From the IMG/VR virus record IMGVR_UViG_2645727555_000025, positions 1 to 4,454 of that record: DNA of 4,454 nt; one strand, written 5' to 3'. The stretch is from a virus. Taxonomy: Duplodnaviria; Heunggongvirae; Uroviricota; Caudoviricetes. Of this stretch, positions 1-4,454 are shown piece after piece. The stretch's first letter is position 1. Each line of letters begins with the position of its first letter. Position numbers and translations under genes: made by a program. The notes beneath the pieces are model-generated. The model searched no databases and was not told the origin of the DNA. It worked only from the letters and a program-made list of their open reading frames with translations.

Positions 1-39
1 TTGACGGACTTCAGGGGAAAAACGAGTATTTTTAGTCAT
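1..39 (-). CDS. IS3-family transposase OrfA, N-terminal 13 codons only (partial, runs off window)
   Basis: ATG at complement 39..37 preceded by AAGAGGT; translation MTKNTRFSPEVRQ... matches the remembered N-terminus of IS629-type OrfA. Confidence 0.65.
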   Translation of the reverse strand, partial: MTKNTRFSPEVRQ

Positions 40-68
40 CCTGTTTACCTCTTTCTCAGGAAGTTTAG

Positions 69-93
69 TCTCCAGGATTCCCGGGGCGGTTCA
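69..93 (-). repeat. Terminal inverted repeat (IRL) of the IS3-family element
   Basis: Reverse complement of 69-93 is TGAACCGCCCCGGGAATCCTGGAGA, a 25-bp end beginning with the 5'-TG typical of IS3-family termini. Confidence 0.65.
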
Positions 94-124
94 AGCAGGT
101 GATTTCAGCTCCGCTTTAAATGAG

Positions 125-706
125 TTGGAGTTAGCTCATGAGCCTATAAACGTAATTAAGGCTGAAAGTGTTGAATCTGCCGAAAACGAGCCAGAACAAT
201 TGGGATTTATTGAGGTTGAAGAGTGTGTTGAGGTTAATGATGAATTAAAAGTTCAACAGTCAAATGATAGCAATACAAATAAAAAAGCTCGTACTGCAAG
301 AGGTCCTCGTTTTACTTTAAGTGATAAAGATGATTTGTTTTTCAATAAAGCAGGCTTAGAAAAAGATATTTTCTTAGACGCTTACGAAAACGCGCCTGTC
401 AAAGCAAAGGATAAGATATTAAACCTTCTTAATTGGTTTAGCGGAGGTCCAGATATTAGTGTTTACACGGTAATTTCCATGAGACACCTTCTCACAGAAA
501 AGAAGGCTACAAGTAATAGTATTAAGATTGCTTTAATGAGCAATCCAGAAAAACCGTATCCGCTTAACACTGCGTCAACTCAGGCTGGGCAAATGATGGC
601 TGTATTTCCAGCTACAGGAATTGCTGTTAGAGACGGTGGAAATCTAACATTGAACGAAGAATCACCGATCGTTAAGAAGTTTGTCGCGGAGTACACTATT
701 GGATGA
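125..706 (+). CDS. Hypothetical protein (193 codons from TTG), acidic N-terminal segment; probably the 3' portion of a gene interrupted by the IS insertion
   Basis: Frame is open from nt 5 to stop at 704-706 with no ATG/GTG before 479 and no convincing SD at TTG 125; the IS end lies at nt 93, so the native 5' end is likely displaced. No recognisable motif. Confidence 0.45.
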   Translation: MELAHEPINVIKAESVESAENEPEQLGFIEVEECVEVNDELKVQQSNDSNTNKKARTARGPRFTLSDKDDLFFNKAGLEKDIFLDAYENAPVKAKDKILNLLNWFSGGPDISVYTVISMRHLLTEKKATSNSIKIALMSNPEKPYPLNTASTQAGQMMAVFPATGIAVRDGGNLTLNEESPIVKKFVAEYTIG

Positions 707-746
707 CGTTCCCCTACTGAAAATAAAGCCCATAGAGAGCTTTATA

Positions 747-776
747 GTGCTGGGTAAGCTAACCCATACCCAGCAC
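747..776. other. Stem-loop (10-bp stem GTGCTGGGTA / TACCCAGCAC, 10-nt loop)
   Basis: Perfect inverted repeat 747-756 versus 767-776, read directly. Confidence 0.4.
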
Positions 777-780
777 CACA

Positions 781-828
781 AAAACGCGCCAGAGAGCTTC
801 TTGTTCGCATTTCTGGCGCGTTTTATTT
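781..828. terminator. Bidirectional rho-independent terminator
   Basis: 13-bp perfect stem AAAACGCGCCAGA (781-793) / TCTGGCGCGTTTT (812-824) with GC-rich core, A-tract on the 5' side and TTTTATTT on the 3' side; lies between the ORF at 125-706 and the methyltransferase gene. Confidence 0.6.
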
Positions 829-857
829 GATTGCCATACATAAAATCAAATGCAAAA

Positions 858-877
858 ATAGGTAATCACTTACCTAT
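858..877. promoter_or_regulatory. Inverted repeat ATAGGTAA-TCAC-TTACCTAT just upstream of the methyltransferase start; candidate operator or translation-initiation hairpin
   Basis: 8-bp arms at 858-865 and 870-877, 4-bp spacer, ending 11 nt before ATG 889 and adjacent to the purine-rich RBS region. Confidence 0.3.
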
Positions 878-888
878 CGAGAAAGAAG

Positions 889-1482
889 ATGATTGCAGCC
901 GAAAAAATCAAACAGCGAAAGCGCGACAACTCTCTTCGTGACCTCTGGAGAACACCTGATTGGCTGTTTTCTGCCATTCAACGTTATCTTGGAGTGACAT
1001 TTGATGTTGACGTTGCCTGCAACAAGGACAATGCAAAGCTGCCTATTTTCATAGGCGTTGAGCGCGATGCTTTGAAATCTGAATGGGGGCAGCCAGGTAC
1101 AATTGCCTTCCTCAATCCACCCTACTCCAAAATCTCCCCCTGGATTGATGCGGCTATACGTGAGCAGGCTCGCGGAGTTACAACAGTGATGCTAATTCCT
1201 CAATCCCTCGATACAAAGTGGTATGAGCGTGCAACAGAGTATGCGAATGAGACGATTATTCTGTCTGGTGGCCGCGTTGCGTTTGTCGAGCCTGACGTCA
1301 ATTTGGGTCAGGTAGAAGTAAACATCAACCCCGGTGGCAGTATGCTCGTTGTTTTTCGAGGGTTTTGTCAGGACGCTGGGCACTCTATAAGCAAGATCCC
1401 TTTGGACGTCATGAAAAGTCTGGGAGGGTATGATCCTGCGAATGTGATCAGGAAAAAAAGACCATCAAAGAAGGCTGCTTAG
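889..1482 (+). CDS. Phage-type DNA N6-adenine methyltransferase (Dam family, Pfam PF05869-like), orphan
   Basis: 197 aa; N-terminal WRTPDWLF motif and NPPYS catalytic motif (the D/N-P-P-Y/F motif IV of amino-methyltransferases); purine-rich stretch before ATG 889. Confidence 0.85.
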   Translation: MIAAEKIKQRKRDNSLRDLWRTPDWLFSAIQRYLGVTFDVDVACNKDNAKLPIFIGVERDALKSEWGQPGTIAFLNPPYSKISPWIDAAIREQARGVTTVMLIPQSLDTKWYERATEYANETIILSGGRVAFVEPDVNLGQVEVNINPGGSMLVVFRGFCQDAGHSISKIPLDVMKSLGGYDPANVIRKKRPSKKAA

Positions 1483-1503
1483 TTTGCTCTGGCGTCTGTA
1501 ATT

Positions 1504-1562
1504 AGCCTGCTTCTGTATATATAAATAACTACATATTAATTATTAATATACGGAAGCAGGCT
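1504..1562. repeat. GC-clamped inverted repeat (12-bp arms) enclosing a 35-nt AT-rich palindromic core; candidate terminator or operator/promoter element
   Basis: AGCCTGCTTCTG (1504-1515) pairs with CGGAAGCAGGCT (1551-1562), one G-U equivalent. Core contains the perfect 17-bp palindrome ATATTAAT-T-ATTAATAT (1533-1549). Lies 22 bp after the methyltransferase stop. Confidence 0.45.
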
Positions 1563-1668
1563 GTTTTGTATCAGAGACTCCCAGACCTGAACATCACTAC
1601 AGAATCCACTAGACCCCCTTCCCAGACGCTTTAAAATCGATTTTATGAACCACTTTAAGGAAACCAAC

Positions 1669-1899
1669 ATGTCATACCCGACTAATGTCGTTGCGCTCGT
1701 AGAGAGCGATTTTCTGGCCCAGGCTCGTGAAATGATGAAAGATCGTGAGCAGGCTTTCAACTTGTACGAGTGGGCAATTAAGTGCTTGCATCTTGGCGAG
1801 CATCGCGAACTTGTTGAACAGCTTTTAGGTGAGTTGATCAATGAGGTGTTTGCCTTGAATGTTCAACTACATGGTCGAGAAAATAATCAATCACAATGA
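1669..1899 (+). CDS. Hypothetical small protein (76 aa)
   Basis: ATG 1669 preceded by AAGGA (1657-1661) at 7-nt spacing, preferred over the ORF-track ATG at 1645 which has no SD. Acidic, helix-like composition; no recognised family. Confidence 0.55.
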   Translation: MSYPTNVVALVESDFLAQAREMMKDREQAFNLYEWAIKCLHLGEHRELVEQLLGELINEVFALNVQLHGRENNQSQ

Positions 1900-2319
1900 T
1901 AGATAAGTACAAACTATTCATAAAGTGAATTGTAAGTGCTAAGATCTGATAGTTTCCAGTCGTAGACTGGAGGCTCGACCTGATGGGTGGGGGTAAGCGT
2001 CACTGGCGTCAGGTTTAAAAAAGCTCACTACCAGCGTAGAACCGGTGCCGTATAGGTGTCGGGGAAGGGGGAACCAAAGTGAGCAGAGACAAGGGTCACT
2101 TTATGATTGTCGAGTCTGGGGTGTTTCGAGAGGTTGAATCCAGTACTCCCCTTCATAAAGTGTGGGAAGATCTCGGTTCTGGGGTGCTGTCATCCATAAC
2201 TTCCCAAGTCTAAGCTGGCAGTAGACTTAGACCATAGCTTTTCAGGTTATGAAACGACCAGGTTGGTGAGGAATTTTATACTCACCTCCCTGGGAGAGTA
2301 TTACCTGAAAAGACAACCT

Positions 2320-2357
2320 CTCACTTCGTTCGAGGTGAACTTCACTCACTTCGTTCG
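2320..2357. repeat. Two perfect 13-bp direct repeats CTCACTTCGTTCG (2320-2332 and 2345-2357) flanking the small palindrome GTGAAC-TTCAC
   Basis: Read directly; about 125 bp upstream of the RNase H start codon. Confidence 0.6.
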
Positions 2358-2418
2358 TTCAGTTCAGGTTTATAAAAACCTGTTCTGGGAAGTAATTTGT
2401 TTATTTTAATAATTATTA

Positions 2419-2443
2419 ACACGCACGCGTGTGCGCACGCGCG
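2419..2443. promoter_or_regulatory. 25-nt perfectly alternating purine-pyrimidine tract (ACACGCACGCGTGTGCGCACGCGCG) with nested palindromes, in the RNase H promoter/5' UTR
   Basis: Strict Pu/Py alternation across 2419-2443; palindromes CACGCGTG (2424-2431) and GTGCGCAC (2431-2438); preceded by an AT-rich stretch (2393-2418) and followed by SD AGGAG (2471-2475). Confidence 0.5.
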
Positions 2444-2480
2444 AGGAAAAATCGGCGCGGCGCTTGATTCAGGAGTTTAT

Positions 2481-3071
2481 ATGACGACGAAGACACCAGC
2501 CCGATCGCAAGCAAAAACTCGCAAAAAAGACAAAAACAAAAATTCTCCCCGCACCAATCCCACAACGCCTGTCGTAGAGTTCAATCCCCAGCTTAAAACC
2601 GTGAAAATCTTTAGTGATGGCTCTTGCCTTAAAAATCCGGGTGGCCCGGGCGGTTACGGTATCGTTCTCCAGTATCGTGGTGAGGAACGCGAGTTCTCAG
2701 ATGGTTTTCATAGCACCACCAATAACCGCATGGAGATGATGGGGGCACTTATCGGGCTGGAGCGTTTGAAATATCCATGCAACGTTATTTTGCACTCTGA
2801 TAGCCAGTATCTGAAAAACGGCATGACACAGTGGATGAAATGGTGGAAACGCAATGGATGGATGACTTCTGACAAAAAACCGGTAAAGAATGTTGATCTG
2901 TGGAAGCGTCTGGATGAGGCCGCAAGTCGACATAATGTTCGCTGGAAGTGGGTTAAAGGTCACGCCGGGCATCGTGAAAATGAAATATGTGATCGACTCG
3001 CGAAGATCGCAGCTTTTTCAGCAGCAGATATGCCTCACAAGAAAGATATTGGTTTTGTTTATAACAAATAG
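2481..3071 (+). CDS. Ribonuclease HI homolog (RNase H type 1 fold) with a ~40-aa basic, low-complexity N-terminal extension
   Basis: 196 aa. From residue ~40 it aligns with E. coli RNase HI as I remember it: catalytic D (IFSDGSC), E (NNRMEMM), D (HSDSQY), H (KGHAGH), D (ICDRLA) and the GYG motif are all present. N-terminal 40 residues rich in K/R/T/P. Strong SD AGGAG 5 nt before ATG 2481, preferred over the ORF-track TTG at 2397. Confidence 0.85.
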
Positions 3072-3168
3072 TAAGTAAGTGTTTACCTATCATTTTAAAT
3101 CATGTATCTTATCGGCGTCAGGATGACAATGTGTCGGTAAGACACAGTTCCAGGATGGAACGAGAAAG

Positions 3169-3190
3169 GCGGCTGGCAATCGCCAGCCGC
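3169..3190 (+). terminator. GC-rich hairpin (9-bp stem, 4-nt loop), possible terminator/attenuator after the RNase H gene
   Basis: GCGGCTGGC-AATC-GCCAGCCGC followed by AACTCTTTCT, a weak U-tract. Confidence 0.4.
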
Positions 3191-3219
3191 AACTCTTTCT
3201 GACACTGGATGGAGTCCAC

Positions 3220-3714
3220 ATGGCACGTCAAACCTATTTCACTTCTGTAACTAAACGTCCTCGTTCTTTACGTCAAATTTTGGCCGAATTATTTAGCGGT
3301 CGTGTTATGTCACGTCTTGATGAACTAGAGACTACCGTTCGGTTGCTGAATGAACGTTTAGATAATCAAGCGTCAGTTGTTGCGAACGTGGGGGCGATTG
3401 TTGCCTCTGGTTCTTCACGCGAAGCGAAAAATGCACGGCCTTTAGTGAAGGAGAAAAACAACAAGGACAGTTCGAATGGAAAATTTTCAAAGAAAGAGGC
3501 TGAAACCAATGGCCTACGTTCTCATTATAGTTTCACTGGCGACGGTAGCCGTTCCAGCCGGTCAGAGCCTTTTGATGCCGGATTCATCCATCACCACACC
3601 TTCGTCGACGACAATTACCACCACTCCAGTGGAGCGTCCTGTCACTCTGGATGGGATGGCGGTGGATGCGATACCTCAAGTTCATCCAGTTACTCAGGAT
3701 CATGCTGTGACTAA
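3220..3714 (+). CDS. Hypothetical protein, predicted coiled-coil N-terminal half; C-terminal third is low-complexity (His/Ser/Cys/Gly) and may not be translated as drawn
   Basis: ATG 3220 with GGAG (3211-3214) at 5-nt spacing; first ~85 codons look like genuine coding sequence (amphipathic LDELETTVRLLNERLDN). From ~3480 the +1 frame looks more gene-like than this frame. Confidence 0.4.
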   Translation: MARQTYFTSVTKRPRSLRQILAELFSGRVMSRLDELETTVRLLNERLDNQASVVANVGAIVASGSSREAKNARPLVKEKNNKDSSNGKFSKKEAETNGLRSHYSFTGDGSRSSRSEPFDAGFIHHHTFVDDNYHHSSGASCHSGWDGGGCDTSSSSSYSGSCCD

Positions 3715-3727
3715 GGCGGTTGTATGA
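3476..3727 (+). CDS. Small secreted or membrane-anchored Thr/Pro-rich protein (83 aa) with N-terminal signal-peptide-like segment
   Basis: ATG 3476 preceded by AAGGA (3463-3467); basic n-region MENFQRKRLKP, hydrophobic h-region MAYVLIIVSLATVAV, then PAGQS and a T/S/P-rich region; codon choice looks typical for enterobacterial genes; stop TGA overlaps the next ATG. Confidence 0.5.
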   Translation: MENFQRKRLKPMAYVLIIVSLATVAVPAGQSLLMPDSSITTPSSTTITTTPVERPVTLDGMAVDAIPQVHPVTQDHAVTKAVV

Positions 3728-3912
3728 ACTGGTTTTCAAATCACTTTGGAAAAATTTGGCTGGCAATTCTTGCCCTCATGGCCGCCGGTTGGGTATCGAA
3801 CATTATAAAACTTGTTTGCTCTGGCGATCTCCAGTTTCAGGCTGGCATGACCTTGGCTCGTGTAGTTGGGATTTTTATTTTTCCAGTCGGTTCGGTACTT
3901 GGTTATTTCTGA
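3724..3912 (+). CDS. Small membrane protein (62 aa, two predicted transmembrane helices)
   Basis: ATG 3724 overlaps the upstream stop (ATGA), SD-like AAGGCGG upstream; hydrophobic segments IWLAILALMAAGWV and LARVVGIFIFPVGSVLGYF. Preferred over the W/C-rich ORF at 3720-3950 in another frame. Confidence 0.5.
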   Translation: MNWFSNHFGKIWLAILALMAAGWVSNIIKLVCSGDLQFQAGMTLARVVGIFIFPVGSVLGYF

Positions 3913-3944
3913 CGGTTGTTAGTGCATATGCATTGACCGTCTTT
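3911..3944 (+). terminator. Hairpin (GACGGT / ACCGTC stem around the palindrome TGCATATGCA) followed by CTTT; possible terminator
   Basis: Arms 3911-3916 and 3936-3941; inner palindrome 3923-3932; short T-run 3942-3944. Confidence 0.35.
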
Positions 3945-4005
3945 GCGTAAGCAATTTATTTAACTAGAAAACAACTTGTTTTGACAAATAACAAAAGGAA
4001 AACAC

Positions 4006-4416
4006 ATGTTAGGTTTCTTCAAAAAGAAAACTCGTAAAGCAGTTATCGAAGTCAAAAAAATGGAGAACCGTGATGCGGTTGAGGCCACCGTGTGGGGCGC
4101 GTACATGATCTCCTATGCCGACGGCACATGTGACGCAAAAGAAATTGCCATTCTTGAGAAGACAATTGCAGCTCTGCCTGCGTTTTCTCCGTTTGCTGGT
4201 GAAATTGCCCAAATGAGCGCCAATATCCGTGCTCGTTACGAAGCGTCCCCTCGTTCTGCTAATGCACAGGCTATTCGTGAGCTGTCTGATATTGCTGGTA
4301 CTCCAGAGGCGGTCGATGTTCTGTGTCTGTGCCTTGATATTGCCGATCAGGATGGCATTGGTCGAGTAGGCAGCCTGACGGCTGCGGCTTGTCATGGTCT
4401 GCAATTACCGTTATAA
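4006..4416 (+). CDS. TerB-fold (tellurite-resistance TerB-like) protein, 136 aa
   Basis: SD AAGGA (3995-3999) 6 nt before ATG 4006. N-terminus M-x-x-FF-K and two A-D-G-containing helical segments (YADGTCDAKEIAILEKTI; DIADQDGIGRVGSL) resemble the paired ADG motifs of TerB as I remember them. Confidence 0.7.
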   Translation: MLGFFKKKTRKAVIEVKKMENRDAVEATVWGAYMISYADGTCDAKEIAILEKTIAALPAFSPFAGEIAQMSANIRARYEASPRSANAQAIRELSDIAGTPEAVDVLCLCLDIADQDGIGRVGSLTAAACHGLQLPL

Positions 4417-4454
4417 AAACAGGCAATGTCATTGTCTTTCAGGTGGTTATATGG

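Follow-up and report, generated by a model that had tools for sequence, protein, structure and literature searches.

A candidate large structured RNA in the early DNA-metabolism region of SSU5/pHCM2-type phage-plasmids

Bacterial RNAs that are both large and highly structured yet lack a known function are few, and the ones explained later have often turned out to be mechanistically unusual. ROOL and GOLLD, which occur in phages and prophages, are large structured non-coding RNAs (ncRNAs) without known function, as are OLE, HEARO and raiA. RNase HI removes the RNA of RNA:DNA hybrids (primers, R-loops), and the leading regions of conjugative plasmids have been described as carrying genes such as ardA, psiB and ssb. 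The locus considered here lies in a stretch of 4,454 nt (hereafter, the window) from a virus of the Caudoviricetes (IMG/VR record IMGVR_UViG_2645727555_000025, positions 1–4,454), where a block at 889–3071 contains the genes for a Dam-family DNA methyltransferase (Dam) and a protein of 76 amino acids (aa), a gap free of open reading frames (ORFs), and a gene for RNase HI (rnhA). The initial annotation proposed these four parts as a candidate for an undescribed functional module. Something undescribed is indeed present, but it is an RNA encoded in the gap and not a four-gene module. With a probability of roughly three in four, positions 1951–2410 encode a structured RNA of about 450 nt that had not been described before, and the block around it is an unremarkable piece of the region for early DNA metabolism in an SSU5/pHCM2-type phage-plasmid, composed of independently evolving units. 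The local helices of this RNA are secure, its long-range helices and its ends are not, and its transcription is putative.

The ORF-free gap extends from 1900 to 2480. Full-length copies of the intergenic element were collected with their flanks from plasmid, phage, viral-contig, genome and metagenome collections, giving a sample of 114 copies, 83 of them distinct. Compared with ten relatives from Salmonella, Klebsiella, Enterobacter, Cronobacter and Raoultella, window positions 2001–2400 are mostly 92–99% identical, dropping to 81–89% in places in the two Klebsiella-type copies, whereas the flanking coding regions are only about 70–80% identical to those of the same ten relatives. The wider neighborhood was compared over 33 kb between pECOH89, a non-mobilizable E. 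coli phage-plasmid of 111.7 kb that is 99.9% identical to window positions 93–4362, and pKPHS1 of Klebsiella pneumoniae; about 17 kb of this region aligns. Across 338 segments of 200 nt the median identity is 74.5%, and the eight best segments (87.5–96.5%) all lie inside the RNA element, the next best being in nrdB (87%). The RNA element is the most conserved sequence in the compared 33 kb.

A TGnTAnnAT promoter element stands at a fixed distance from the 5' hairpin of the RNA in every lineage, within surroundings that are just 54–68% identical. Transcription would run rightwards from this extended −10 promoter and start at about 1951 with a stabilizing 5' hairpin (1951–1975), the sequence of which is wholly different between lineages while its pairing is always kept. 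The RNA would then fold into a structure of many helices and end near a U-rich tract at about 2400–2410. Helices supported by covariation are 1977–1992/1998–2015, 2097–2106/2153–2162, 2112–2120/2139–2148, 2163–2169/2200–2206, 2208–2217/2222–2232 and 2255–2270/2281–2296, and a G-rich strand at 2058–2076 is invariant. The variable spacer at 2397–2418 may hold the 3' end of the RNA; no canonical intrinsic terminator was found there or between the RNA and rnhA.

The plus strand is predicted to fold at −170 kcal/mol (z −5.3) and the minus strand at −138 kcal/mol, an asymmetry of 32 kcal/mol, and the consensus structures have many plus-strand G-U pairs that would be A-C mismatches on the other strand. 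Divergent copies retain the pairing. The RNA of the L120 lineage is 71% identical and carries both single and double compensatory changes, as well as the paired deletion of one base pair (GCUCACU/AGUGAGC to GCUACU/AGUAGC), while in the L176 lineage, at 54% identity, whole helices have been rewritten yet are still paired. In an alignment of nine sequences, 96.9% of the cells are paired and 26 of the 122 pairs have changed on both sides. Column shuffles gave 6.0 ± 2.0 such pairs, with none of 500 reaching 26, and sliding the partners gave 2–6, which places the compensatory changes above both controls, as expected of a structured ncRNA. A natural control is provided by L122, a decayed remnant of the locus in an E. 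coli chromosome (CP125919.1, 400262–410870), in which Dam is shortened, the first catalytic Asp of RNase H is gone, and many changes in the RNA copy are uncompensated. At 66% identity this copy keeps 81 of the 122 pairs, compared with 96 kept by the less similar (54%) L176 copy, and L183, an L176-type copy, reaches 138 bits with a covariance model built on the central domain, versus 12 bits for L122. The copy L178 (a contig of SRR8137545) was left out: nearly all of its C residues read as T, an effect of bisulfite conversion of the reads and not true variation. Its conservation, strand and covariation mark 1951–2410 as a candidate RNA gene.

Several points weigh against this assignment and against what is proposed later about function. 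The comparison of L176 with L122 is biased, in that L176 is part of the alignment that defines the structure and L122 is not. Variation within the main clade is small, and the compensatory changes come mostly from L120 and L176, that is, from few independent events. The long-range helices vary between runs of RNAalifold, leaving the local helices as the secure part. The promoter, start and 3' end are read from sequence alone; given the lack of a canonical terminator before rnhA, the RNA could belong to a longer transcript, and pairing in single-stranded DNA could yield a similar signal. Finally, the trans-acting role considered below is a guess from evolutionary rate.

The RNA matches no described RNA in the collections searched. 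Rfam 15, which includes ROOL, GOLLD, OLE, HEARO, group I and II introns, RNA I, 6S, tmRNA and RNase P, returned nothing at E ≤ 1 within 1951–2410, and the few matches at E 1–10 are chance hits of microRNA type, far below gathering scores. No feature lies over the RNA in RefSeq E. coli records, and literature searches, including those by exact RNA sequence and for SSU5 or pHCM2 together with RNA, found no description or expression data; one phage-plasmid preprint turned out to concern a different family. The gap had been described as a repeat region at first, a view that does not hold: Tandem Repeats Finder reports nothing in it, and its sole notable direct repeat is a 13-mer present at 2320–2332 and again at 2345–2357. 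A search for a tRNA or tmRNA found none. A hidden protein gene was considered and rejected, as the open frames differ between lineages and the indels are not multiples of three. Likewise, a retron or DRT-type ncRNA was rejected for want of an adjacent reverse transcriptase, none being found in the window or its 33 kb context, and by the tests applied the RNA appears to be neither a retron RNA nor an intron, and is probably not a ColE1 RNA II.

Scans with conserved patterns, two of a viral collection and one of metagenomes, recovered SSU5-type contigs only (about 105–120 kb), and a third viral scan added one more L176-type copy. Among GTDB genomes there were about 40 chance matches and two true ones, both in Kluyvera. 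In plasmids the RNA is common, with 687 carriers in PLSDB, and 206 of 5426 complete E. coli genomes contain the block. The locus is also found in pHCM2 of Salmonella Typhi, where the RNA would lie at about 16053–16518 of NZ_CP029867.1, and in many K. pneumoniae isolates.

Some existing gene calls overlap the RNA. In SSU5_090 (L002, 2864–3628) and KPHS_p101180 (L005, 2958–3626) the start of the "RNase H" is placed far upstream, inside the RNA, and the record of phage Cyrano has a hypothetical protein laid over it. These calls are probably annotation errors that stem from an unrecognized RNA gene.

Table 1. Features in and around the block, in window coordinates.
Feature	Position	Strand	Remarks
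Terminator-like hairpin ending the upstream gene	781–828	+	−25.5 kcal/mol, z −5.5, followed by UUUUAUUU
Sigma-70-like promoter match 5' of Dam	831–859	+	Consensus scan: TTGCCA, 17 nt, AAAAAT; TG before second hexamer
Orphan phage-type N6-adenine DNA methyltransferase, Dam family	889–1482	+	PF05869, phrog_111, PADLOC orphan methyltransferase model
Terminator-like hairpin after Dam, inside the block	1503–1563	+	Inverted-repeat arms of 17 nt; −27.8 kcal/mol, z −6.7, followed by GUUUUGU
Acidic 76-aa protein, predicted three-helix bundle	1669–1899	+	phrog_5343; annotated in pECOH89
Putative extended −10 promoter element (TGCTAAGAT)	1937–1945	+	Pattern TGnTAnnAT
Candidate structured non-coding RNA, about 450–460 nt	1951–2410	+	Conservation, fold, covariation; ends putative
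A+T-rich, U-rich spacer, variable in length and sequence	2397–2418	+	Alignments
G+C-rich alternating purine/pyrimidine stretch with hairpins	2419–2466	+	Alignments
RNase HI with basic tail	2481–3071	+	PF00075 match; Shine-Dalgarno AGGAG at 2471–2475
Strong G+C hairpin downstream of rnhA	3169–3190	+	−23 kcal/mol; terminator-like, weak U tract

The protein genes on either side of the RNA (Table 1) are what the initial annotation took them for, namely a methyltransferase, a small protein and an N-terminally extended RNase H. Dam matches PF05869 over its full length with 129.3 bits (curated cut-off 28.1) and has its NPPY motif at residues 76–79 (window 1114–1125). It is annotated in pECOH89, is without an adjacent partner endonuclease, and in PADLOC 2.0 matches only orphan or type II methyltransferase models. 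The L120/L121 lineage, which is otherwise intact, is without it. From what is known of the family, Dam would methylate the DNA of its own element, and self-methylation for protection or timing is plausible.

The 76-aa protein is a real ORF of a narrow family (29 clusters). Its AlphaFold2 model has a predicted local distance difference test score (pLDDT) of 80, and no significant fold match to the predicted structure was found in the PDB; PADLOC 2.0 likewise gave no defense or anti-defense match. The gene always stands directly 5' of the RNA, in 105 of 105 assessable RNA-bearing loci.

RNase HI scores 152.6 bits against PF00075 (curated cut-off 25.8) over residues 40–178. Its catalytic domain (residues 38–180) aligns with PDB chains of E. 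coli-type RNase HI at E values of 1e-62 or better, and residues Asp46, Glu85, Asp107, His161 and Asp171 fall in the columns of the catalytic E. coli residues Asp10, Glu48, Asp70, His124 and Asp134. Identity to the chromosomal RNase HI of Kluyvera and Vibrio is about 61%. Preceding the domain is an extra basic tail of 37 residues (2481–2591), the ends of which are conserved (MTTKTP..R and a stretch of 14 residues) and the middle variable; Pfam found no hybrid-binding domain in it. As with the 76-aa protein, there is no defense or anti-defense match for the RNase H in PADLOC 2.0. The host has an RNase HI of its own. A host-derived copy in a swappable slot would clear RNA primers or R-loops as the element replicates, and the place of the gene in an array for replication and nucleotide metabolism suggests that it supports the element's own replication.

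The phage or plasmid origin first proposed for this DNA is borne out. Besides pECOH89, many other plasmids of about 110 kb are 98–99% identical to window positions 93–4362, and the carriers are of the group of Salmonella phage SSU5 and the S. Typhi plasmid pHCM2, with SSU5 and related phages having the same locus. These form an established group of phage-plasmids (PMC7969092). In the window, the phage-plasmid DNA is a fragment of about 4.27 kb bounded by insertion sequences (IS): positions 1–94 represent the end of an IS629/IS3-family element, which many plasmids have at 100% identity, and positions 4363–4454 are the end of a second, different, transposase-bearing IS. The two junctions were found together in no complete E. 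coli genome of the collection. The IS elements truncate the first gene (125–706, a member of the phrog_5235 family that has lost its 5' end) and a TerB-like gene (4006–4416).

In pECOH89, the block is part of a long array of co-oriented genes. Upstream are SbcCD-like genes, nrdA, nrdB, the genes for thymidylate synthase (thyA) and dihydrofolate reductase (dhfr), an AAA ATPase and a DnaQ-like 3'-5' exonuclease; downstream are the TerB-like gene, DUF3927, DUF4942 and HD-domain genes. The carriers are typed as having IncFIB or rep_cluster replicons, the 33 kb around the RNA contain no annotated rep gene, and 675 of 685 carriers are typed non-mobilizable. A plasmid leading region, which had been named as an example for the block, is therefore ruled out by its context of phage DNA-metabolism genes and by its carriers, and none of ardA, psiB or ssb is annotated in the 33 kb of pECOH89.

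As to the borders of the block, the proposed terminators were partly upheld. The hairpin at 781–828 is strongly terminator-like and that at 3169–3190 is a strong hairpin with a poor U tail, but a third, at 1503–1563, had been missed, and with its U tract inside the block the latter is therefore not a single unit between two terminators. Dam would be a unit with a promoter-like site and a terminator-like hairpin of its own. Sigma-70-like matches are no more numerous in the window than in shuffled sequence, and the match at 831–859 is weak evidence.

The initial annotation had suggested checking whether the methyltransferase, the 76-aa protein and the RNase H co-occur across genomes. They do so only as synteny within one family, with parts lost or replaced independently, and not as a co-selected unit. 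Dam is present in 88 of 92 assessable RNA-bearing loci and rnhA in 91 of 105, being missing or disrupted in the other 14; in PLSDB, 728 plasmids have the 76-aa gene and 620 have an RNase H match over 80% or more of the extended query. The frequent loss of rnhA marks it as accessory. Its place is taken by two opposite-strand ORFs in L110 and relatives and by betT cargo in L010; the replacing genes of L110 and L176 have no informative Pfam, PHROG or PADLOC matches. Throughout, the RNA is nearly unchanged whatever gene comes next, opposite-strand genes included. A Moellerella plasmid keeps the exonuclease, a hypothetical gene, Dam and the small protein, followed by a plain terminator, and has neither RNA nor rnhA. 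The co-occurrence is synteny by descent within one family, combined with independent loss and replacement.

Further observations concern the same slot. In L176 (Enterobacter-type; 4829–5916) the RNA is followed by a 200-aa gene of unknown kind and a 103-aa gene, and rnhA is absent. The 103-aa gene, two genes downstream of the RNA, has a weak Pfam match to Tad2-like proteins; Tad2 is an anti-Thoeris protein. In L125 (3765–4476), and also in L126, a different region of about 440 nt with a strong fold (z −5.2) separates the small-protein gene from RNase H; after it come about 100 nt rich in A+T and two tandem RNase H-like ORFs. It showed no similarity to the RNA by nhmmer or the central-domain covariance model and had no match in Rfam or PLSDB; the slot may here be occupied by a second RNA, unrelated to the first.

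Where other cargo stands in for rnhA, its junction is always directly 3' of the G+C-rich element at 2419–2466. This element consists of 25 alternating purines and pyrimidines (ACACGCACGCGTGTGCGCACGCGCG), a run of A and a second G+C hairpin, and its core, CGCGCGAG(G)AAA, is shared by all lineages. The element folds no better than shuffled sequences (z −1.1) and may mark a boundary or a site prone to recombination.

The best guess for the action of the RNA, held with low confidence, is that it is a free-standing, stable, trans-acting molecule, the invariant strands and loops of which would bind a conserved partner. That partner would be a host machine or a core phage function, highly conserved across the Enterobacteriaceae, and a nearly invariant partner would explain why none of the protein genes in the compared 33 kb changes as slowly as the RNA. 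A further reading is tentative and of low probability: the conserved unit would be the 76-aa gene and the RNA, followed by a swappable gene (RNase HI, ORFs of unknown kind, genes next to a Tad2-like gene), and the RNA would be the effector of an RNA-centered host takeover or counter-defense, for example by acting as a ribozyme, or as a decoy or scaffold for some conserved machine of the host.

Also of low probability is a role in priming, in which the RNA would be a pre-primer or R-loop-forming origin transcript like ColE1 RNA II, processed by the adjacent RNase HI to start lytic or plasmid replication. The size of the RNA, its fold and its promoter would suit such a transcript, as would an RNase HI gene directly after it in about 85% of carriers, neighbors that serve replication and nucleotide metabolism, a G-rich coding strand in the 5' half (GC skew 0.22–0.28 over 1801–2200) and an A+T-rich tract downstream. 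However, rnhA is dispensable, missing or disrupted as it is in 14 of the 105 loci and lacking in the L176 lineage, while the RNA itself is absent from the Moellerella relative and has a non-homologous region in its place in L125. DnaA boxes are at chance frequency in the window, without enrichment, and no other origin signature was found; no antisense regulator is evident and no antisense promoter was found within the RNA. The replicons are those typed above, without an annotated rep gene within 33 kb, and the near-invariance of almost every base would exceed what a primer precursor is expected to need.

An anti-restriction or anti-defense cargo module, as first proposed for the block, appears unlikely. 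On that proposal Dam would hide incoming DNA, and RNase H would break down the RNA:DNA hybrids that host defenses form or use. Phage orphan methyltransferases can protect DNA and Dam matches the orphan methyltransferase models of PADLOC; the rnhA slot is variable, with a weak Tad2-like match two genes downstream in one lineage, and type I restriction-modification genes are nearby in pKPHS1 and the Moellerella plasmid. Against this, the parts are lost or swapped independently, the context is one of nucleotide and DNA metabolism rather than of a conjugative leading region, and GATC occurs in the window at the frequency expected by chance. Neither RNase H nor the 76-aa protein matches any defense or anti-defense model, Dam being the only part matched and then as an orphan or type II methyltransferase. 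Nothing positive was found for such a role, though Dam or RNase H may have one.

The ORF-free stretch is still less likely to be a long 5' leader or cis-regulator of rnhA rather than an independent RNA: no canonical terminator separates the two and G+C-rich hairpins lie just 5' of the rnhA Shine-Dalgarno sequence, but the RNA is far more conserved than rnhA and is almost unchanged where that gene has been deleted or replaced, by opposite-strand genes in L110 and by unrelated genes in L176 and L010. Equally improbable is a cause at the level of DNA (structure of single-stranded DNA, a recombination or attachment site, a protein-binding array, or recent recombinational spread), since, although hairpin covariation also fits folded single-stranded DNA and the fixed joining point of rnhA-replacing cargo suggests a recombination-prone boundary, the pairing is rich in G-U(T) and strand-specific (32 kcal/mol), the architecture is many-branched, a promoter element is conserved at a fixed upstream distance, the elements are not conjugative, and the compensated substitutions track lineages, as expected of vertical descent under constraint and not of recent spread.

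Two observations downstream of rnhA are recorded separately. The motif CAGGAUG occurs in the loops of two small hairpins (window 3116–3161 and 3203–3212), and a third motif, GGAUGGAG, overlaps the ribosome-binding site of an ORF starting at 3220. This arrangement looks like a CsrA-binding leader, the support from tools being a weak CsrB-like Rfam match (E 0.12) and a stable fold. Inside the 164-aa gene that begins there (3220–3714), and out of frame with it, is an ORF of 83 aa (3476–3727) with a hydrophobic N-terminal segment followed by a Pro/Thr-rich part. It is kept at 81–83 aa in SSU5, pHCM2, a Kluyvera element and the L120 lineage, although identity of the enclosing gene between lineages falls to as little as about 50%, and judging from this pattern the ORF is likely to be a genuine overlapping gene.

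The four-gene module itself is ordinary, and the RNA is the part that deserves attention. Phage-plasmids of the SSU5/pHCM2 type are common in clinical Enterobacteriaceae, and an unannotated large RNA in the best-studied bacterial family, more conserved than the ribonucleotide reductase of the same element, is unexpected. Its recognition corrects existing annotation records, and it could serve as a sharp typing marker for these elements. If the tentative reading of the RNA as an effector is true, it would represent a new class of large functional RNA in the Enterobacteriaceae.

Set beside the described systems, the protein-coding parts of the locus are familiar. Dam resembles the orphan Dam-family methyltransferases of phages (PF05869, phrog_111) in its full-length match, its NPPY motif and the lack of an adjacent endonuclease; here, however, the window has no GATC bias and the gene is absent from L120. 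Residues 38–180 of the RNase HI align end-to-end with E. coli RNase HI (rnhA; PDB 2RN2 and 1RNH), including all five catalytic residues, but the phage-plasmid version has a 37-aa basic tail and its gene is often lost. Small co-oriented genes that include a methyltransferase and lie beside variable cargo recall the anti-defense islands of leading regions, whereas the carriers here are non-mobilizable and the neighbors are genes of nucleotide metabolism. With ColE1 RNA II the RNA shares a length of several hundred nt, a folded structure, a promoter (here putative) and an RNase H that is functionally or physically nearby. It differs from RNA II in having no sequence or Rfam relation to it, no evident equivalent of the antisense RNA I and no origin signature, as well as in the dispensability of the RNase H gene and in its IncFIB or rep_cluster carriers. 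The closest likeness is to ROOL, GOLLD, OLE, HEARO and raiA: each is a large RNA of many helices on a mobile element, recognized by conservation and covariation. Unlike these, the present RNA is found only in SSU5-type phage-plasmids, occurs in Enterobacteriaceae, and has no match in Rfam 15 even at E values up to 10. The protein genes of the locus are thus members of known families, and the RNA is probably a new large structured RNA on a mobile element.

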